IMG/VR virus record: IMGVR_UViG_2737471844_000002
Location: 1 to 64,000 of that record
Length of the DNA stretch: 64,000 nt
Source: a virus
Taxonomy: Duplodnaviria > Heunggongvirae > Uroviricota > Caudoviricetes
Direction: 5' to 3' (one strand)
In this document: piece after piece, positions 190-46,327 of the stretch
Layout of the letters: each line of letters starts with the position of its first letter
Numbering within the stretch: the first letter of the stretch is position 1
Position numbers and translations under genes: made by a program
Notes under the pieces: generated by a model
What the model was told of the DNA's origin: nothing
Databases searched by the model: none
What the model saw: only the letters and a program-made list of their open reading frames with translations

Positions 190-606
190 TCATTCGCTCC
201 CCTCTTTTTCCTTATTTCGTTGAACGCCAATTGCGACACACGTACTAAGCAAATCTTTACATTTCTCTACGTCTTCAGACTTACGCAATTTGATGCTTTT
301 TACAGACTGCGGGCTACTGTCCGTAGCACGATACATCGTTATTTCAATATCATTTCGGTCTAAGAGTCCCATAATGGCTTTTGCAACCTCCACACCCTTC
401 TTCGCGAAATCAAAGAACAGAGCAAGTTTATATGGATTTTCGACGGAAAAAACTTCAATTTTGCTAAAACCAACATCGTGTAGAGAAAAATATTGCTCAA
501 CCTCATCTCGAAGTTCTGGATCGCATACAATGTCTATTCTCCAGTACTGACCTAAATGCAAATCGCTATTAACTGTTTTTTCCACAACATCCTCCTTACC
601 CAGCAA
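190..606 (-). CDS. Hypothetical protein (138 aa), AT-rich, overlaps integrase stop by 11 nt
   Basis: Six-frame ORF; position between integrase 3-prime end and presumed attL; no recognisable motif. Confidence 0.45.
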   Translation of the reverse strand: MLGKEDVVEKTVNSDLHLGQYWRIDIVCDPELRDEVEQYFSLHDVGFSKIEVFSVENPYKLALFFDFAKKGVEVAKAIMGLLDRNDIEITMYRATDSSPQSVKSIKLRKSEDVEKCKDLLSTCVAIGVQRNKEKEGSE

Positions 607-1570
607 TAGGATTAAATCTCACCGCATCCTGCAAGTAATCCGGCGCAAGATGGGCATAAATCATCGTTGTCTGAATCTTTGCGTGCCCCAGAATTTTCTG
701 GAGCGTCAGAATATTGCCGCCGTTCATCATGAAATGACTGGCGAAGGTGTGGCGCAGCGCATGAACAGCCTGGCCGTCAGGAACATCAGGTGCGACCGTT
801 TTGATGACATCGCGAACCAATGGATAATCCAGCGTCGGAAACACCAGTTTCCCGCCCCGTTTTTTGATCTTTTCAAACAGGCTTTCAGAAATAGGAACGG
901 TACGGTTTTTGCTGTTCTTCGTTTTTGAAAAAGTGATTCGACAATGAAGAACACGGCGCTGCTCCAGTGCCGCTACCTCGCCCCATCGCGCCCCGGTCGA
1001 CAGAAGGATTTCGACAGCCAGCCGTTCATCGGGATTTTCAGCCAGTGCATCCAGCAACTGAACACATTCAGACTTACTCAGATATCCCATTTCGCGCTCG
1101 TTAACCTTCATTCCTTTAAGGCCTTGAACGGGGTTATCGTTAAGAAAATGGCCGGATGAGATGAGTGCGGTAAACATCGCGCTTAACGCCCCAATCTCTC
1201 GATTTATGGTGCTGGGCTGTATCCCCTGCTCTATCCTGGACACACGTAGCTCGGTGAGCATCGTTGTATTAAGTTTATGCACGCACGGGTCATCCATTGC
1301 CTCACTCAAGCGCAGCAATTTAAGGCGCGTGTTATGCCCAGACTTCATTAGCTGGCCGTGGTATTTCCACCACAAGTCAATAAGCACTGACAGCGGACGG
1401 CGATCAATAGAGTTTCCTTTCCACTCATTGTTATGCTGTTGCGCCAGCACCCACCGCTCATATAAAACTGCATCCGATTTCGTTTTAAATTTTTTACGAA
1501 TGCGTTTGCCTTTACGCCCCTCCGGGCGCATGTCAAGAAGATACCCTCCCGGAATTGATTTTATGCTCAT
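596..1570 (-). CDS. int: Tyrosine recombinase / phage integrase
   Basis: C-terminal HALRHTFAS...LGHAKIQTTMIYAHL motif typical of the tyrosine recombinase catalytic domain; start trimmed to internal Met (MSIKSIPGGY) to avoid overlap with the repressor ORF. Confidence 0.9.
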   Translation of the reverse strand: MSIKSIPGGYLLDMRPEGRKGKRIRKKFKTKSDAVLYERWVLAQQHNNEWKGNSIDRRPLSVLIDLWWKYHGQLMKSGHNTRLKLLRLSEAMDDPCVHKLNTTMLTELRVSRIEQGIQPSTINREIGALSAMFTALISSGHFLNDNPVQGLKGMKVNEREMGYLSKSECVQLLDALAENPDERLAVEILLSTGARWGEVAALEQRRVLHCRITFSKTKNSKNRTVPISESLFEKIKKRGGKLVFPTLDYPLVRDVIKTVAPDVPDGQAVHALRHTFASHFMMNGGNILTLQKILGHAKIQTTMIYAHLAPDYLQDAVRFNPIAG

Positions 1571-1619
1571 TCGTGAAACCCCAGCGTTACAAGGCCACCA
1601 TGCCCCCAGCGCTCCATGA

Positions 1620-1928
1620 TTAGCCGGGCTGTGTGCCAGTCTTGCGGGGTTTTTGAGAAGGCGATGTGCTTTTTGGCCCATCAGGGGAGAGAGACGGACT
1701 GATCTGCCCAGCAGCCTCATTTGTTTTTCCCGTCATAAGCCAATTCATGTACTTAAAAAAGCGAGGGTGATTAACAATCTTGATAAGCACTTCGCCCCCT
1801 ATGTTTTCAATCCGCCCCGTTTCATAACGACGCAAAGTGCCGATAGGCACATCAATCAGGCCGCAAAATTCTTCGCGCGTTAAATCCTCTGATTCACGAA
1901 TCACTCTAATTTTTTCACCGATAAGCAT
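1620..1928 (-). CDS. XRE-family HTH repressor (P2 C / 186 cI position)
   Basis: N-terminal HTH (IRVIRESEDLTREEFCGLIDVPIGTLRRYETG); divergent from the cox-like gene across an operator palindrome; start placed at internal Met MLIGEK. Confidence 0.7.
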   Translation of the reverse strand: MLIGEKIRVIRESEDLTREEFCGLIDVPIGTLRRYETGRIENIGGEVLIKIVNHPRFFKYMNWLMTGKTNEAAGQISPSLSPDGPKSTSPSQKPRKTGTQPG

Positions 1929-1940
1929 TGACAGTGTTCC

Positions 1941-1986
1941 TATAAGTACACTAAGCTTGCGCACAAGGTGTACTTATAAGTACACC
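1941..1986. promoter_or_regulatory. Operator: perfect 20-bp palindrome GGTGTACTTATAAGTACACC (1967..1986) plus half-site TATAAGTACAC (1941..1951)
   Basis: Read directly in the divergent intergenic region between the repressor and the cox-like gene. Confidence 0.5.
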
Positions 1987-2666: not shown

Positions 2667-2954
2667 ATGACCAAAGACCATGCTCAGGGTGTATTTATCC
2701 GTTTTATTGATTTTCGCGGTGAACTGTTATTACGTGCATCCGCTATTGACGGAGTGACTCCGGCGGGTAAAAACGGAGCCGACGAAGCCACTTACGTTTA
2801 TCTGAACGGCACGCGACTGCTTGTGGAACTTCCGTACCAGACCGTACGAGAAATCATTAGCGAAGCTGAAAAGGCACGCCAGGTTAATGGCGATGAACCC
2901 TATATCGAAATTATTTGTATGGATTCAGAAGCTGAAATACAGAAAGCAGATTAA
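2667..2954 (+). CDS. Hypothetical early protein (95 aa)
   Basis: ORF trimmed to ATG at 2667 to avoid overlap with the previous gene. Confidence 0.5.
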   Translation: MTKDHAQGVFIRFIDFRGELLLRASAIDGVTPAGKNGADEATYVYLNGTRLLVELPYQTVREIISEAEKARQVNGDEPYIEIICMDSEAEIQKAD

Positions 2955-2962
2955 AGGGCGTT

Positions 2963-3208
2963 GTGATGGGCAAAGAATATAAAACTCTCATTAACAAAGC
3001 ACTTGAGCGTTTTTATTTTCGCTTAAGTGCATCAGGCGCTCATGCTGAACGTGCGGCCCGTGACTCATTGACCAGAGCAATCCGAAGTCTGTATGACGTG
3101 GCTTTTTATGCTGATGATCTGGATGCACTTAACGAACTTTCCGAGCTGATCTGTGCCGCAGAATGCGGGGAACATATTGAACCGTATAAGCTGGGAAATA
3201 TCGCATGA
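2963..3208 (+). CDS. Hypothetical early protein (81 aa)
   Basis: ORF in the early operon. Confidence 0.5.
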   Translation: MMGKEYKTLINKALERFYFRLSASGAHAERAARDSLTRAIRSLYDVAFYADDLDALNELSELICAAECGEHIEPYKLGNIA

Positions 3209-3342
3209 GTATATTTATCTCATGGCTTGTTCTGATTATTTCGGTGGTCTGCGCCATTGGGATTATGCGAATTATTAATTCAGTGAAAAAGATCGAGCGT
3301 TTTTCTCTGATGAATAACGATACAAATAAAACATCAAATTAA
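3205..3342 (+). CDS. Small hydrophobic peptide (45 aa, single predicted TM helix)
   Basis: ATG overlaps upstream stop (ATGA); MSIFISWLVLIISVVCAIGIMRII then a charged tail; AT-rich; below the ORF-track length cutoff. Confidence 0.35.
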   Translation: MSIFISWLVLIISVVCAIGIMRIINSVKKIERFSLMNNDTNKTSN

Positions 3343-3409
3343 ATAAGAAAACGTGAAAACCATCCGTATTAATGGAGGTATTCGCACGCGTAAATAACGG
3401 AGATATAAA

Positions 3410-3826
3410 ATGAAAGCAAAAGAAGAAGGCATTATCGACACATTAAAAAAAATATCAGAAGCGGAAGATGAAATGGCTAAAGATGCCGTGAAGCGTAGCC
3501 AACATATGGCAGCACTTCACGCACTGACCATTGCAAAAATCACCGCTGACGCAGCCAAAATTATTGAGGAACAGGGCAAAGAAATCGACACTCTTAAAAC
3601 ACAGTCAACAGTTGCAGCCATGAATCCGTCCAGCATTGGACGCCGCATTTACATTCTTGGTTCGGCAATAATGACGCAATACACCATTATTGCCGAACTG
3701 CACGGCAAATACCTGATAACGCCTTACCACACAAAAGAGTCAGAGCTTCTGACAAATCTCCGCCTGATAGAACGCTCTCAAGCTGTATTCATTGATGACG
3801 CGCAACGTGCCGTATTTAACGCATAG
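3410..3826 (+). CDS. Hypothetical protein (138 aa), AT-rich
   Basis: Long ORF with an A-rich purine run upstream; composition differs from its neighbours. Confidence 0.5.
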   Translation: MKAKEEGIIDTLKKISEAEDEMAKDAVKRSQHMAALHALTIAKITADAAKIIEEQGKEIDTLKTQSTVAAMNPSSIGRRIYILGSAIMTQYTIIAELHGKYLITPYHTKESELLTNLRLIERSQAVFIDDAQRAVFNA

Positions 3827-3849
3827 GGTTACTGGACAAAGGGGGCGCA

Positions 3850-4053
3850 ATGGCAATTAAGCATTTTCCCGTCGTTCGCTTTACCTCCAGAGGGCGCGAA
3901 TACGAGGTCGACGAACGCCTGATTACCACTATCGACAAACATCGTTCGGAAAAGGATGCACACCACATCTACCTCACTGACGGCACTTACTTCTGCGCCA
4001 CCAACGTGGCGCGAGTAAATCTTATCCGACAGGTACAGGAGCCACGCAGATGA
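3850..4053 (+). CDS. Hypothetical protein (67 aa)
   Basis: ORF overlaps the next gene by 4 nt. Confidence 0.45.
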   Translation: MAIKHFPVVRFTSRGREYEVDERLITTIDKHRSEKDAHHIYLTDGTYFCATNVARVNLIRQVQEPRR

Positions 4054-4316
4054 CCATTCTGGACTACATCGCTACTCATCCGGGGTGTAGCGGCGGAGAG
4101 ATCGCCGCAGCACTGAATACCCCAACCACAGCCATTAATGCTGAGTTACGCCGACTTTGGCGCGGCGGCTTAGTCATCAGAACAAACCGCAGCACAGGTG
4201 GTCGCGCTCGCAAAACAGGAGGCCAGGCTTCTTACCACGTAAACCCGATGCCGTTCGGGTGCGGCAATCCACTTACTCACATGTTTAACCAGCTACTGAA
4301 GGAAGCCAGAGCATGA
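4050..4316 (+). CDS. Small putative winged-helix DNA-binding protein
   Basis: ILDYIATHPGCSGGEIAAALNTPTTAINAELRRLWRGGLV resembles a wHTH. Confidence 0.45.
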   Translation: MTILDYIATHPGCSGGEIAAALNTPTTAINAELRRLWRGGLVIRTNRSTGGRARKTGGQASYHVNPMPFGCGNPLTHMFNQLLKEARA

Positions 4317-4612: not shown

Positions 4613-4733
4613 GAAACCAGAACATGCACACACAAAAAAACCGCTTGCCATGCCGCAATCAGTCAGGTTACATTTCCGCTGCACCTCATAAAACGGGTGC
4701 CGGGATTTCCACCCCGCTGACAACTACAGCGCA

Positions 4734-4756
4734 CAACCGCGCCAGCGGTTTTTTTG
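4734..4756 (+). terminator. Possible rho-independent terminator
   Basis: AACCGC-GCCA-GCGGTT hairpin followed by TTTTTTT. Confidence 0.35.
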
Positions 4757-4934
4757 TGCGTACTGTATCGCCACGTCTTTTTCGCACACGAATTATGGTG
4801 GGGCGTACGGGGCCGACTTCGGTCGGGCCGGGTTCTGTAGTTGCCGGTTGTGGAAACCCTGTACGTCTCACCACCCCGAGTTTTCCACCTCTGGATGGTG
4901 AGTTTTCAAAACTTGCAACTACAGAGGCCACACC

Positions 4935-5165
4935 ATGGCAAACCGCAAACAGCACCGCGCTATCGCGGAGCGTCGTCACATCCAGACTGAAATCAACCGC
5001 AGACTTTTCCGCGCATCACGCGTCGCGCAAATCATGCACATCAATATGCTGCATGAGCGCAGCCACGCACTATCAAACATCTATTCCGCCGCTGTTTTCA
5101 GCTATCTGGCGGATGATCTGCACGAGCTTCAACAGCTCATCCAGCAGCAAAACAAACTCCATTAA
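4935..5165 (+). CDS. Hypothetical protein (76 aa)
   Basis: Six-frame ORF. Confidence 0.4.
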   Translation: MANRKQHRAIAERRHIQTEINRRLFRASRVAQIMHINMLHERSHALSNIYSAAVFSYLADDLHELQQLIQQQNKLH

Positions 5166-5237
5166 TTCCTGTTCCGGGCCTTTCCTGCACCTTGCGGCGG
5201 GAGGCCTTCGCACATCTGTAACAAGAGGATTGCCGCA

Positions 5238-5603
5238 ATGATTCTCGCCAACGACTTTATTGAATACCTGCTCAACACAGAACGTGATCTTGCCGCTCGC
5301 GTGCGTGAACGTTATGACATGTACCTGAAATCCCTGCCTGTACCGCAGCTCGCTGACGGAAAGATTGTTATTGATGGTCGCTACATGATTGACAGCCACG
5401 AGGGAAATTACAGGCTTTACCGCATTGAAGGTGGCACCCCGTCCGTTATTGGCATTTACCAGCGCCCATCCTCTGCAATCGTCGATGTGATTGCCGACAG
5501 CATCCGCATCACACATCGCCATGCCGACACAGAAGACACCGTGCTGGAAATTCAGCGGCTGGCTACAGTCTGCCGCGACACCCTGAATGGCATGACGAAG
5601 TAA
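5238..5603 (+). CDS. Hypothetical protein (121 aa)
   Basis: Six-frame ORF directly upstream of gene A. Confidence 0.5.
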   Translation: MILANDFIEYLLNTERDLAARVRERYDMYLKSLPVPQLADGKIVIDGRYMIDSHEGNYRLYRIEGGTPSVIGIYQRPSSAIVDVIADSIRITHRHADTEDTVLEIQRLATVCRDTLNGMTK

Positions 5604-5609
5604 ATCACT

Positions 5610-5866
5610 ATGACGGCAGAGTACATCAGGGACTGGCAACAACCGCGCCACGCAGTGGGGCGTGAAGGAACGGGGATCCCCGCTCCTGAATCCGCGCTTT
5701 CCTCCTGGCTGGATGCCTACCGGGCAGAGAACGAGCGCCGCCAGGAAATGGCTGATGCGGCGTTCTCCGCCACGCCGCTGGGCAACCTGATTAATAAAAG
5801 CCTGGACGCACAGGAAAAACAGGACAAAACCATCACACTGGCAGGAGACGCCAGAAAACAGACACG
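5610..5866 (+). pseudogene. A: Replication initiator gene A, 5-prime fragment, truncated by the Mu-like insertion
   Basis: The ORF reads in frame into the gene A body at 42741 once 5867..42740 is removed; its apparent stop (5874..5876) lies inside the inserted element. Confidence 0.7.
5862..5866. repeat. Target-site duplication ACACG, left copy
   Basis: Identical 5-mer at 42736..42740. Confidence 0.6.
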
Positions 5867-6171: not shown

Positions 6172-6819
6172 TCATGCTGATTTTTTACTTACAGATTTTG
6201 TTTCTTGCTCCGGTGTGACATCGGTCTGATCACCCGGCGATTGTGGTCGTATATGAGATTCAACAATTCGCAAAATCTCTCTGTCAGTATCTTCGTTTCC
6301 ATGTAATGCTACTCGGATTGCATCCTTAAGTGATTTCCTGATATTCAGACTTTGGATAGCATTCTCTTGCTCCTCCAGCGTGTTAGCGGCTTGTTTCGCT
6401 TGCCTAGTGGGTTGTTGCAGACGTTTTAGGATTCCTTTGATACCCATATCACATATTGCATTTATCAATAGTTCTTTATCTTCTGTGGACGCTCTTTTCA
6501 ATAACTCGTTAGCTAGCTCGTTTGTAATATCGGGAGAAGGCTGCGCTGTTTGGTTTGATAAAGAGTTTGCTGTGGCGGTGAGTTCCTCACCATAAGCGAG
6601 CCAATTTAAACTCACCTGCTCTTTATCTGAGATAAGGCAGGCTATTTTAAAAGAGGGTTCTGTTCCTTTATGGATGTAGTTGTTTAAGGTTGAAGGAGGG
6701 ATACCCCAGTCGCTCGCGGCAGTTCTGACACTGCGCCCACCTATTAGTTTTACTAAACGCTCTCTAAAACTTTCTTTTCCTCGGTCAACTAAAGAAAAAG
6801 CGTCATCATTTTTTGTCAT
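6172..6819 (-). CDS. Mu c-like repressor (DNA-binding)
   Basis: Leftmost gene, divergent from ner; RBS AGGAAAGGA before ATG at 6819; SVRTAASDWGIPPSTLNNYIHKG...VSLNWLAYGE resembles a phage repressor HTH. Confidence 0.6.
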   Translation of the reverse strand: MTKNDDAFSLVDRGKESFRERLVKLIGGRSVRTAASDWGIPPSTLNNYIHKGTEPSFKIACLISDKEQVSLNWLAYGEELTATANSLSNQTAQPSPDITNELANELLKRASTEDKELLINAICDMGIKGILKRLQQPTRQAKQAANTLEEQENAIQSLNIRKSLKDAIRVALHGNEDTDREILRIVESHIRPQSPGDQTDVTPEQETKSVSKKSA

Positions 6820-6952
6820 TTTTCCTTTCCTATTTAACCAATTGATTTTCAATCACAAAACCATATAAAGACCAAAAGCAAAAAGAAAATACAAAGAAAA
6901 GGCTATTTTTGCTTTACATGGGTTACATATGGATCAATACTTATATCCGAAG

Positions 6953-7001: not shown

Positions 7002-7238
7002 ATGATGGTTAGAAATGAAGTAATGAACCTGGACTGGCACCGCGAGTACATTGTCGCAGCTGTGCACACCAAAGGTTTTACATTGCGTGAACTTTCTGAA
7101 CGCGCTGGTCTAAAAAAAGACTCTTTAAAAAATGCACTGTATCGCTCATGCCCTAAATATGAACGCATCATAGCCGATGCTATTGGTGTGGAACCTGCGG
7201 AGATCTGGCCAAGCCGGTATGCCAGTAAGGCGGCATAA
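7002..7238 (+). CDS. ner: Ner-like DNA-binding protein
   Basis: DWHREYIVAAV...LRELSERAGL...ADAIGVEPAEIWPSRY closely matches the Mu Ner / Nlp family as I recall it. Confidence 0.85.
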   Translation: MMVRNEVMNLDWHREYIVAAVHTKGFTLRELSERAGLKKDSLKNALYRSCPKYERIIADAIGVEPAEIWPSRYASKAA

Positions 7239-9280
7239 TGTTTTATTCAGCCAATGAACTGGCCGGTCTTACTGGTTTGCCCGGTACAGTTCAGGGGGTG
7301 CGCTGGACGCTCAATCGGATCACAGAGACGCACCCGGAATGGAAGCGCAAGCGTGAAGGCACCAAAGCATTCGAGTATCACATCGACTGCCTGCCCGCTG
7401 AAGCGCAGAAGGTTTTACGTAAGCGCCTGACTCATCAGGTTCTGGAAGATGCGCAACTGCCCGCCGTGGTTGAGCAGAAGGCAGTTAAGAACGTCACCAT
7501 TCGCGATGAACTGGAAGTGATGGTCAAATGCCCGGAGCTGGCATTACGCGAAGTTCAGGCACTGACCGACAAGCAAAAGGCCATCGCTGATGCGCGGATA
7601 TTGCTGGCTACCGAAGTGCATAAACTGCGTGAATACGCAGGAATGTCCAGGACGGCAGCGATAAAACACATTGTTGATGGTATCCGCCAGGAGGCTTTGC
7701 CCGAGCGCGTTATTGTGGCAGGTAATACCGCCAATGCCCGACAGGGTAAGCGAACTGGCGTCAGTACAGGGAGTTTACAGGAATGGTATTCCGCCTGGCT
7801 GATGGCGCGCGGTGATGCCAATCAGTTACTGGCGTTACTGTCCCCCGGTCATCATAAGGGGACACCGTGGGAGCAGGTCTGGTGGTTGAGCGATTTCTTT
7901 ATGTTCTATCGCTCATGGAAGCGCCCGACTGTTGAATATGCGTATCGTGAGTTTTCAGTCTGGTGGCATGAAAAACACGCGAATGATGCGGGAATGCTGG
8001 CGGCACTGCCTTCAGTTCACGCAGTAAGACGGGTGTTAAGCAACGTCCCGGTGATTGTTAAGGAGCGTTTCCGCTCCACCGGTTCAGCCTGGCGTTCGCT
8101 CAATCCCTTTGTGCGGCGCGACTGGAGCACATTACCGGTTAATGCGGTATGGGTCGGGGATGGTCACTGTATGAAAATGACCGCGTTTAACCCCCTGACC
8201 GGCAATATTTTCCGGCCAGAGGTGACGCTGGTTATGGATGCGGGGCAGCGCTTTGTTGTGGGCTGGTCACTGTCCCTGTCGGAAAACGTGATAGCCGTTG
8301 CTGATGCGCTGCGTCATGGCATGTCACAGCACGGGATACCGCTGATTTATTACTCCGATAACGGGGGCGGCGAAAAAAACCGGGTGCTTGATGCCGATAT
8401 TACCGGGATTTTGCCCCGGCTGGGTGTGGAGCATCACACGGGGATACCAGGTAACCCACAGGGGCGCGGGGTGATTGAAAGGCTTAACAAGGAAATTCCC
8501 CGGGATGTGGCCCTGAGTTTCCAGACGTACTGCGCAAGGGATGCAGACAAGGAAACCGTAATGATGCAGCAACGGATTATGCAGTCAGCCATTAAGGCCA
8601 CCCACAAAGGGAAAGAACTGACAAAACGGCAGGTTAAGGCGAGGGATGAAATCCCCACCTTTGAGCAACTGATGGCAGCCATAGAGCTGGAGGTCAGACG
8701 CTATAACAACCGGCCACACAGCAGCCTACCCCGCAAAGAGGATGGCGAATATTACAGCCCGGCAGCGTATCGCCGGAAACTGATAAAAGAGCAGAATGTT
8801 GAAATTGATTTCCTGTCGCCGGAAGAACTGCATGAAATGTTCAGGCCGGAAGTGACGCGCAAAACATTTCGCGGGGAAATTCAGTTATTCAACAATATTT
8901 ATTACTCATATGATCTGGCCGCAGAGCACGGGAATGAAGTCAGGGTCAGTTACGATATTCATGATGCAAACAGCGTCATTGTCCGGCGGGCTGATGGCTC
9001 TTATATCTGCGATGCCATCTGGAACGGTAACAAGGTTGATGCCTTCGCTAAACCAGTTATCGAACAAAAACTGGAGAAACGCGTCAGGGGCCGCATTGCA
9101 CGGGCCACGCAGAAAATCGAAGAGGCTAAACGCGAGCTTACCCCGGCTATTACGCAGAAGCCTGACTTTAATCTGGGATATAGACTGGAGCGCCCGGAGA
9201 AAAAGGAAAAAGAAGAACTTTATTTATTCGCATCTGAACGCGAGCGCAATTTAAAGAAAAACGGCACAAACAACCGTTAA
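7238..9280 (+). CDS. A: Mu-type DDE transposase (MuA-like)
   Basis: 680 aa, directly after ner and before the AAA+ B protein; Mu transposase domain organisation. Confidence 0.9.
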   Translation: MFYSANELAGLTGLPGTVQGVRWTLNRITETHPEWKRKREGTKAFEYHIDCLPAEAQKVLRKRLTHQVLEDAQLPAVVEQKAVKNVTIRDELEVMVKCPELALREVQALTDKQKAIADARILLATEVHKLREYAGMSRTAAIKHIVDGIRQEALPERVIVAGNTANARQGKRTGVSTGSLQEWYSAWLMARGDANQLLALLSPGHHKGTPWEQVWWLSDFFMFYRSWKRPTVEYAYREFSVWWHEKHANDAGMLAALPSVHAVRRVLSNVPVIVKERFRSTGSAWRSLNPFVRRDWSTLPVNAVWVGDGHCMKMTAFNPLTGNIFRPEVTLVMDAGQRFVVGWSLSLSENVIAVADALRHGMSQHGIPLIYYSDNGGGEKNRVLDADITGILPRLGVEHHTGIPGNPQGRGVIERLNKEIPRDVALSFQTYCARDADKETVMMQQRIMQSAIKATHKGKELTKRQVKARDEIPTFEQLMAAIELEVRRYNNRPHSSLPRKEDGEYYSPAAYRRKLIKEQNVEIDFLSPEELHEMFRPEVTRKTFRGEIQLFNNIYYSYDLAAEHGNEVRVSYDIHDANSVIVRRADGSYICDAIWNGNKVDAFAKPVIEQKLEKRVRGRIARATQKIEEAKRELTPAITQKPDFNLGYRLERPEKKEKEELYLFASERERNLKKNGTNNR

Positions 9281-42735: not shown

Positions 42736-42740
42736 ACACG
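42736..42740. repeat. Target-site duplication ACACG, right copy
   Basis: Identical to 5862..5866. Confidence 0.6.
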
Positions 42741-45367: not shown

Positions 45368-46327
45368 ATGAAAATTTGTATCGACGACGGCTCCACCAAC
45401 ATCAAGCTGGCATGGACTGAAAACGGCGAACGCCGCAACGCCATCAGCCCGAACAGCTTCAAGTCGGAATGGTCTGCGCCGTTCGGTGGCTCGCAGCCTG
45501 CGAACTACATGCTTGATGGCGTGCGCTATGGTTTTGATCCGGTCAGCGATCGCTTTGTCCAGACGACCGACACGCAATACCAGTACAGCGATGTGAATGT
45601 CATTGCCATTCATCACGCGCTGGTCAAATCAGGCATCACGCCACAGGAAGTGGATGTTGTTGTCACCCTGCCACTGAGCGAATATTTCGACACTAACGCC
45701 CAGCCGGACATGGCCAACATCAACCGCAAAAAAGCGAACGTTATGCGCCCGGTGGAGTACCAGAACGGTGAGGCATTCACTATCCGTAACGTGCGGGTTA
45801 TGCCTGAATCCATTCCGGCTGGCTTTAAGGCACTGGCTGACATGAGTCCGTTTGAATCCCTGCTGATTGTGGATTTGGGCGGAACCACGCTGGATGTGGC
45901 AAAGGTTCAGGGGCAACTGGCAGGTATCAGCCAGGTGTTTTGCGATCCACACGTAGGCGTTTCTCTGATGGCCGATGCCGTACTGTCGGTGATGGCCACT
46001 AACGGTATGCGCACCAGTCACCACATAGCCAATACCATTATCGAACATCGCCATGATGAAGCCTGGCTGCGCCAGCACATCCACAATGACGCGCATTACG
46101 CCAGCCTGATGGCGGTTATTCGTGAAAAGGAAGAAACACTGAAACAACGTGTTATCCGCGCGCTGGCGGTTTTTTCGGGTTACGGGCGGGTGATGGTTGT
46201 CGGTGGAGGGGCGGAGATTGTGGCACCCGCTATCCGCGAAGCCTGCGGAGTTAATGCGACTTTCATCGCGGACGGGGTGCCACAGTTTGCTCTGGTTAAT
46301 GGGCTGTACGCAATGGACAAGGAGTAA
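45368..46327 (+). CDS. parM: ParM/StbA-like actin-type partition ATPase
   Basis: IDDGSTNIKL...ISPNSFK.EW...QYSDVNVIAIHHAL..SG....EVD...TLPL matches ParM/StbA as I recall it. Confidence 0.75.
   Translation: MKICIDDGSTNIKLAWTENGERRNAISPNSFKSEWSAPFGGSQPANYMLDGVRYGFDPVSDRFVQTTDTQYQYSDVNVIAIHHALVKSGITPQEVDVVVTLPLSEYFDTNAQPDMANINRKKANVMRPVEYQNGEAFTIRNVRVMPESIPAGFKALADMSPFESLLIVDLGGTTLDVAKVQGQLAGISQVFCDPHVGVSLMADAVLSVMATNGMRTSHHIANTIIEHRHDEAWLRQHIHNDAHYASLMAVIREKEETLKQRVIRALAVFSGYGRVMVVGGGAEIVAPAIREACGVNATFIADGVPQFALVNGLYAMDKE

Follow-up and report, generated by a model that had tools for sequence, protein, structure and literature searches.

A core membrane-peptide gene and an optional cassette side by side in the early operon of a P88-like prophage

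Two small open reading frames (ORFs) lie next to one another in the early region of a prophage carried on a 64,000-nucleotide stretch of viral DNA (IMG/VR record IMGVR_UViG_2737471844_000002, positions 1 to 64,000; hereafter ‘the window’), the first encoding a short hydrophobic peptide and the second a protein of 138 residues. Do they form a two-gene insert, as an earlier note on this DNA proposed, and what might they do for the phage? The pair is not an insert: only the 138-residue gene is variably present, while the small ORF occurs uninterrupted in every one of the 86 related loci that we compared, including the 45 in which the position of the larger gene is empty. The locus thus holds one core gene and one cassette, and a horizontally acquired, AT-rich two-gene unit is refuted. 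The features that bear on this, all on the plus strand, are as follows.

2963–3208, plus strand: DUF4754 gene, 81 codons, the upstream neighbour (Pfam PF15946, E 2.9e-54)
3205–3342, plus strand: small membrane-peptide gene, 45 codons, with core codons 1–33 at 3205–3303 (sequence reading and ORF list)
3343–3409, plus strand: non-coding spacer, 67 base pairs (bp), 36% G+C, conserved to ~3390 in loci with and without the cassette
3363–3376, plus strand: 5-bp hairpin TCCGY-ATTM-RYGGA, in which 3363–3367 pairs with 3372–3376, present with and without the cassette
3391–3836, plus strand: optional cassette of ~446 bp carrying the 138-residue gene and its own ribosome-binding site (alignment with phages P88 and vB_EcoM-569R5)
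3398–3401, plus strand: GGAG ribosome-binding site of the 138-residue gene, seven bases before its ATG
3410–3826, plus strand: gene for the 138-residue soluble protein, phrog_9338 (PHROG E 2e-80, residues 1–138 against profile positions 1–138 of 138)
3850–4053, plus strand: phrog_3459 gene, 67 residues, the conserved right-hand anchor of the variable slot (PHROG E 1.1e-45)

The 86 loci comprise 80 IMG/VR loci and 2 genome loci fetched via the DUF4754 protein, plus annotated records. Throughout this set the first 33 codons of the small ORF contain not a single stop codon or frameshift (86 copies, 30 haplotypes), and such variation as they do contain follows the reading frame: 14 of 25 variable sites fall at codon position 3 (a count made without the phage 186 locus), all 17 replacements are conservative (e.g. 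I/M, L/I/F, V/I/A, A/T/V, M/V/I, R/Q, H/N, K/N, E/D and F/I), and the ratio of nonsynonymous to synonymous polymorphism (pN/pS) comes to 0.31 in the ORF’s own frame but to 0.82 and 2.31 when the other two are read, the DUF4754 gene giving 0.13. Its presence in every locus makes the small ORF a backbone gene rather than an insert, and it is a real coding gene of the P88-like phage core. The earlier note had named a lack of conservation of this ORF in related prophages as grounds for abandoning its reading, and on that point its expectation came through strongly. Database searches recovered the peptide solely from Escherichia (including E. albertii and E. fergusonii) and a Citrobacter phage, always labelled hypothetical or ‘membrane protein’.

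Both ORFs exist as first described, and the small one encodes a single-helix membrane peptide. Its hydrophobic stretch spans residues 3–21 (Kyte–Doolittle mean 2.81 over the 19-mer), the transmembrane (TM) helix being placed at residues 2–21, and is followed by the basic stretch RIINSVKKIERF. Four to five lysine or arginine residues come after the helix and none before it; because all basic residues are C-terminal to the helix, the positive-inside rule predicts an N-out/C-in topology, and the product would be a single-pass inner-membrane peptide with its N-terminus outside and its basic C-terminus in the cytoplasm. The ATG overlaps the TGA of the DUF4754 gene as ATGA (3205–3208), a layout typical of translational coupling. 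The description of a 45-residue peptide whose start overlaps the upstream stop therefore holds for this sequence, but 45 residues is a minority allele of what is usually a 37-residue product. The usual form carries a run of six T residues (T6) and ends ...KKIERFF(T/S)(G/E/D)E, commonly ...KKIERFFTGE; the window allele has lost one T (T5, 3300–3304) and its tail reads ...KKIERFSLMNNDTNKTSN. The T5 allele occurs in the window and ~10 other loci on at least three different haplotype backgrounds, which points to repeated slippage, or to recombination, and to a tail that the peptide can do without. The same gene is annotated in phage P88 as gp07, a 37-residue ‘membrane protein’ (YP_009113050), and in its Xuanwuvirus counterparts, at the same position after DUF4754 and with the same overlapping start. 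P88 gp07 and the window peptide agree at 31 of 33 core residues, and the frameshifted tail of the latter brings it to 45 residues.

The 138-residue gene behaves differently. Phage P88 retains the small ORF and most of the spacer but lacks ~446 bp (window ~3391–3836), and in phages without the cassette phrog_3459 directly follows the small ORF. Sorting the 86 loci by the distance from the start of the small ORF to the start of phrog_3459 gives four classes.

199–201 bp, 45 loci: empty
639–651 bp, 35 loci: homologue of 136 or 138 residues
466 bp, 5 loci: a different helical protein of 87 or 105 residues, phrog_21900
956 bp, 1 locus (E. albertii): 137-residue homologue plus a second gene

The slot thus holds a homologue of the 138-residue protein in 36 of 86 loci, the peptide occurs without that gene in the other 50, and presence and absence of the cassette have precise junctions; the slot behaves like a small accessory hotspot. 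The alternative cassette phrog_21900 (loci L010, L025, L052, L053 and L064; 87 residues, or 105 from an upstream ATG) is helical and shows no homology to the 138-residue family (hhalign probability 4%), nor was a relationship detected between that family and the neighbouring Ead/Ea22-like protein (hhalign probability 0.1%). In divergent P88-like phages the homologue (138 or 122 residues) is followed by a conserved gene of 111–113 residues, phrog_16975, with the motif PRFRTMYxLHQ (L085 ~3960–4290; L088 429–764; L090 4425–4766; also L089), which the window does not have; the cassette may therefore once have been a two-gene module in its own right.

Base composition had been a further part of the original argument, in which the early genes on either side were taken to be less AT-rich than both of these. 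There is indeed an AT trough (G+C 0.34–0.36 over 3201–3500), and an AT-rich spacer between the ORFs, of 67 bp and 36% G+C. The comparison with the flanks does not hold up, however. The small ORF has 33% G+C, low at codon positions 1 and 2 (0.28 and 0.30), but its G+C at third positions (GC3) of 0.39 lies among those of the four upstream genes (0.37–0.50), so that its low G+C is explained by a peptide rich in I, F, L, V, K and N rather than by foreign origin. The 138-residue gene (G+C 44%, GC3 0.42) resembles the upstream genes (44–50%) and is lower than the downstream genes only (52–55%). Base composition gives no sign of foreign origin for either gene.

Of the rival readings, the one that we rate highest is that an AT-rich module was acquired as a unit and that its peptide is a membrane toxin or blocks division as 186 Fil, lambda Kil or SPO1 gp56 do. 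A small hydrophobic peptide is indeed confirmed, the trough is there, and phage 186, itself of the P2 family, has host-directed genes at a comparable early-operon place: fil, which blocks cell division, and dhr, which blocks host replication, are both small and dispensable, and lie near the start of the lytic operon, after the switch region and before replication gene A. This likeness is one of role and position only. BLASTP aligned the small peptide with 186 Fil nowhere at E ≤ 100, and neither Fil nor Dhr has a long hydrophobic stretch like that of the peptide when judged by eye only, without hydrophobicity or TM prediction; similarity to the known small proteins of cell-division block and host shut-off (186 Fil and Dhr, lambda Kil, DicB) was likewise not found, the Fil BLASTP, Pfam and PHROG searches being empty. 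With no similarity to Fil or to any known family, a peptide that is universal beside a gene that is optional, and a G+C deficit at codon positions 1 and 2 but not 3, we regard the module as a whole as quite unlikely. That the peptide alone inhibits division or acts as a toxin, a reading by analogy, would be a little less unlikely.

How, then, are the two genes expressed? A consensus scan found no plus-strand promoter-like site between 3019 and 4645, spacer included, and no plus-strand terminator-like site in the segment; promoter-like sites overall were at chance frequency (4 found against 4.3 expected from shuffled sequence), and Rfam has no family match in 3000–3900. Since no promoter of their own was found, it is probably the early lytic promoter that drives both genes, and by analogy with P2 and 186 the overlapping start and tight packing would fit a single early transcript from a promoter beside the repressor gene.

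The account that we prefer treats the two genes as separate from one another, both belonging to the early operon (driven by Pe and repressed by C) of a P88-like prophage of the P2 family. The small ORF would be a core gene for an inner-membrane peptide of ~37 residues (45 here), translated by coupling to the DUF4754 gene, that, in the course of lytic development, may target a host inner-membrane component that is itself conserved, with contact perhaps made through the small-residue face of the TM helix (S13/A17/G19) and the basic juxtamembrane segment; it would not be a poison expressed in the lysogen. What points to a conserved host component is that the peptide is nearly unchanged where its neighbours diverge: in three divergent loci its core is 30/33 (L085), 29/33 (L087) and 31/33 (L090) identical, or 88–94%, whereas the DUF4754 protein falls to 76% in L085 and 44% in L090 (the L087 contig holds just the last DUF4754 codons) and the 138-residue homologue to 38–43% in all three. 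The 138-residue gene would be an optional cassette for a soluble two-domain accessory protein, a binding or adaptor protein that may serve host takeover or counter-defence. The anatomy of the two genes (their reality, core and cassette status, fold class and operon position) we hold with considerable confidence; the roles suggested for the peptide and the 138-residue protein are possible but rather doubtful, and the account taken whole, anatomy and roles together, is tentative, its chances lying a little below even.

Several points weigh against this account. The 86 loci are mostly close relatives, so that the counts carry shared ancestry, and the absence of disruptions in codons 1–33 of these mostly prophage-borne copies shows only that the peptide is tolerated when repressed. 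Conservation of the peptide could also stem from a conserved phage partner, or from an overlapping RNA or DNA signal. Its membrane topology follows from the positive-inside rule only, and the promoter scan, being a crude match to a consensus, could have missed a promoter in the AT-rich spacer that is weak or not of the sigma-70 kind. Above all, no homology links either protein to any activity. The homology and structure searches that the earlier note had proposed did yield a family and a fold class for the 138-residue protein, but every search for function came back empty: the small peptide has no Pfam family at E ≤ 0.1, no PHROG match and just two sub-threshold TM-segment matches in NCBIfam (15–17 bits against cut-offs of 35 and 55); the 138-residue protein matches only function-less PHROG families; PDB sequence searches gave nothing significant and Foldseek against viral models no match at E ≤ 0.001; and literature searches on DUF4754, Xuanwuvirus, the peptide sequence and its RefSeq accession found no functional work. 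Matches to DUF5517 (14 bits against a cut-off of 27) and to a betaine-aldehyde-dehydrogenase family (12 bits against 593) were rejected as noise.

In bacteria, small proteins such as AcrZ and MgtS span the membrane once and modulate larger membrane proteins, and SPO1 gp56 is a phage TM division inhibitor. The peptide shares with them a length of ~30–50 residues, one TM helix, a charged juxtamembrane segment and the lack of an enzymatic domain, and differs from them in being non-homologous, phage-encoded and co-translated with the DUF4754 protein. Existing catalogues list both genes as hypothetical (P88 gp07 and phrog_9338), and neither has been studied. One is a small phage membrane peptide and the other an accessory early-gene cassette, both of them well-known kinds. 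Nothing in these results conflicts with what is currently understood; temperate phages usually carry small early genes that lack annotation. A peptide that stays 88–94% identical while its neighbours drop to ~40% is nonetheless a good candidate for having a specific conserved host target, and such a target, if found, would add one more to the few small membrane proteins of phages whose mechanism is known. The variable slot, filled in some phages and empty in others, is a ready-made natural experiment on an accessory early gene. A bolder proposal, which we put forward as unlikely, is that the 37-residue peptide founds a new family of phage small membrane proteins that bind and disable or redirect one conserved E. 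coli inner-membrane machine (for instance divisome, transport or energy) early in the development of P88-like phages, and that the slot is an undescribed accessory hotspot of the P2-family early operon, distinct from the gpA–gpQ hotspot, with interchangeable cargo (the hairpin-plus-SH3 protein, phrog_21900 and phrog_16975) acting as counter-defence or host-range factors.

The presence/absence polymorphism of the slot, with its alternative cassettes, could also mean that the cassette is a moron expressed in the lysogen for defence or superinfection exclusion, comparable to old, tin and fun of P2, since P2-family phages are known carriers of defence hotspots, among them the gpA–gpQ locus, of ~3 kb on average (Rousset et al., 2022; PMC9122126). 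The slot does resemble these P2/P4 hotspots in being short, flanked on both sides by a conserved phage gene and subject to turnover of the genes that it holds. It differs from them in lying upstream of gpA, inside the repressed early operon, in measuring 0–0.75 kb, in having no recognisable defence domains and in being probably silent in the lysogen. No promoter-like site precedes the 138-residue gene, neither protein matches any PADLOC family at E ≤ 0.1, no enzymatic domain is present and the cassette is just 446 bp; we consider a moron improbable.

The 138-residue protein itself belongs to a tiny family. An exhaustive profile search returned 25 phrog_9338 representatives at E ≤ 1e-3 among 1.84 billion proteins, and a word-indexed search 75 close clusters, nearly all from E. 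coli; one member, URC09553.1 of phage vB_EcoM-569R5, occupies the same early-operon slot. The window protein is of the 138-residue subtype, whereas most members have 136 residues, are 51–62% identical to it and differ chiefly at the hairpin tip; variants of 122 residues have a shorter C-terminal domain. The ratio of nonsynonymous to synonymous substitution rates (dN/dS) is 0.32–0.64 over five regions, which indicates purifying selection; positive selection at the variable hairpin tip was tested and not found, the highest value (0.64, residues 17–45) being still below 1. Neither a hydrophobic segment nor a signal-peptide-like N-terminus is apparent in the sequence (isoelectric point 6.4), and the earlier observation that the protein has no recognisable motif was borne out, with no Pfam, NCBIfam or PADLOC match above threshold. 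AlphaFold2 predicts two antiparallel helices (residues 3–28 and 32–64; predicted local distance difference test score, pLDDT, >90), a low-confidence linker and a five-stranded beta domain, and the C-terminal domain, modelled alone (pLDDT 81; predicted template-modelling score 0.67), is an SH3-like small beta-barrel (~residues 78–127) with the five-stranded topology of that fold (KOW, Tudor, chromo, SH3). Within the family the hairpin tip varies, whereas the barrel and the hairpin base (MNAKEEGI..., AAxIIExQxxE...LKTQ) are conserved. This is a real gene whose product, as modelled, has the fold class of a helical hairpin joined to an SH3-like barrel, and the hairpin probably dimerises.

Such a layout raises the question of whether the protein targets host transcription, with an SH3/Tudor/KOW-like barrel that binds RNA polymerase or a NusG/Rho-type partner and a hairpin that works like the Gre/DksA coiled coils. 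Among the best structural matches to the barrel are many KOW domains of Spt5/NusG and the C-terminal domain of RfaH (at 2–17% sequence identity), and the hairpin-plus-globular-domain arrangement resembles Gre/DksA-type factors. The early operon of 186 includes a DksA-like gene, and 186 and P2 both encode DksA/TraR-like proteins in this operon. The resemblance goes little further: the Pfam KOW profile has no match at E ≤ 0.1, nor do GreA or DksA; the hairpin tip is the most variable part of the protein and has no invariant acidic residues; and the 60 best full-length structural matches include neither a Gre nor a DksA structure. We rate a role in transcription marginally below the moron. The broader description of the 138-residue protein as an accessory binding or adaptor protein is the one that we retain.

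Might the small ORF not function as a protein at all, its conservation coming instead from a cis-acting RNA or DNA element or a leader peptide that does no more than regulate translation downstream? The adjacent conserved spacer does contain a small hairpin, with 98.8% of cells paired across 17 distinct haplotypes and one compensatory CG-to-UA double change, and the tail of the peptide is freely frameshifted. Yet the substitutions in the ORF track its frame, with replacements that are conservative and hydrophobic and with the higher off-frame pN/pS given above; the hairpin lies ~45 nucleotides past the stop of the 37-residue form, beyond the opening reach of a terminating ribosome; its GGAGG serves no gene as a ribosome-binding site; and it is not a terminator, since no T-run follows it. 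This alternative is very improbable, and we continue to read the small ORF as a gene for a membrane peptide.

Least probable of all is that the small ORF is a type I toxin restrained by a minus-strand antisense RNA: at 37–45 residues the peptide has the short, hydrophobic, single-helix character of Hok, TisB, Ldr, Ibs and ShoB, and two minus-strand promoter-like sites (3289->3262 and 3458->3431) are present, but such sites, in a crude scan, do not exceed the shuffled expectation, both hexamers of the 3289->3262 site fall within constrained codons of the small ORF, the nearest candidate minus-strand terminator (2892->2877) is not nearby, Rfam has no match in the region, Pfam and NCBIfam place the peptide in no described toxin family and, whereas type I toxins have their own transcription unit and a cis- or trans-encoded antisense RNA antitoxin, this ORF is embedded in an operon, its start overlapping the prior stop and without a long leader of its own.

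The wider setting agrees with the first description of a P2-like early region. BLAST searches against phage genomes matched P88-type Peduoviridae, genus Xuanwuvirus (84.9–92.9% DNA identity to P88-type phages), and a prophage of E. coli PEC148 is 100% identical to the window over 2900–4100. Synteny with the P88-like early operon extends through int, the C repressor, cox, DUF4761, phrog_3800, DUF4754, the small TM ORF, phrog_3459, a MarR-type winged helix–turn–helix (HTH) protein and gpA. In the window the plus-strand order is a gene in the cox position, DUF4761, phrog_3800, DUF4754, the two ORFs, phrog_3459, the MarR-type winged-helix protein and the Ead/Ea22-like protein, and two genes of this region lie on the minus strand.

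596–1720, minus strand: integrase
1620–1964, minus strand: HTH repressor (C repressor)

A matching P88-type early region occurs in 1366 of 5426 complete E. coli genomes, in 826 of them at ≥80% query coverage and hence with the 138-residue cassette included, so that both genes are common in E. coli genomes, yet unstudied.

Beyond phrog_3459, Rfam also matched two RNAs. An IsrK Hfq-binding RNA (4681–4755, plus strand; Rfam 63.6 bits, gathering score 50) stands in tandem with a C4 antisense RNA (4791–4878, plus strand; 80.5 bits, gathering score 45), with an intrinsic-terminator-like site at 4735–4750. Both RNAs sit within a 205-codon ORF (4624–5241) that is a ‘hypothetical protein’ elsewhere and that several PHROGs label ‘transcriptional regulator’; its 5′ half is probably not coding but a region in which RNA controls immunity or an antirepressor, as with P1 c4 or Gifsy-1 IsrK.

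The P88-like prophage is also broken. Its replication gene A starts at 5610, is interrupted after 5866 and resumes at 42737 (to 45291), the interruption being a Mu-like prophage of 36.9 kb (5867–42736) that begins TGT, ends ACA and includes the following genes.

6172–6852, minus strand: Mu-like c-type repressor
7238–9280, plus strand: Mu-like transposase A

The Mu-like junctions share a 4–5-bp direct repeat, (A)CACG, at 5862–5866 and 42736–40, and an intact gene A in E. coli PEC148 is collinear across the insertion site. With gene A split in this way the host prophage is probably unable to replicate. Beyond gpA, the region from 45368–46327 to ~50800 corresponds to the known P2 gpA–gpQ hotspot, where the collinear PEC148 record starts with a ParM-like segregation gene and a partition/stability gene; plasmid-like partition cargo has been reported for this hotspot, and these two genes fit that description.

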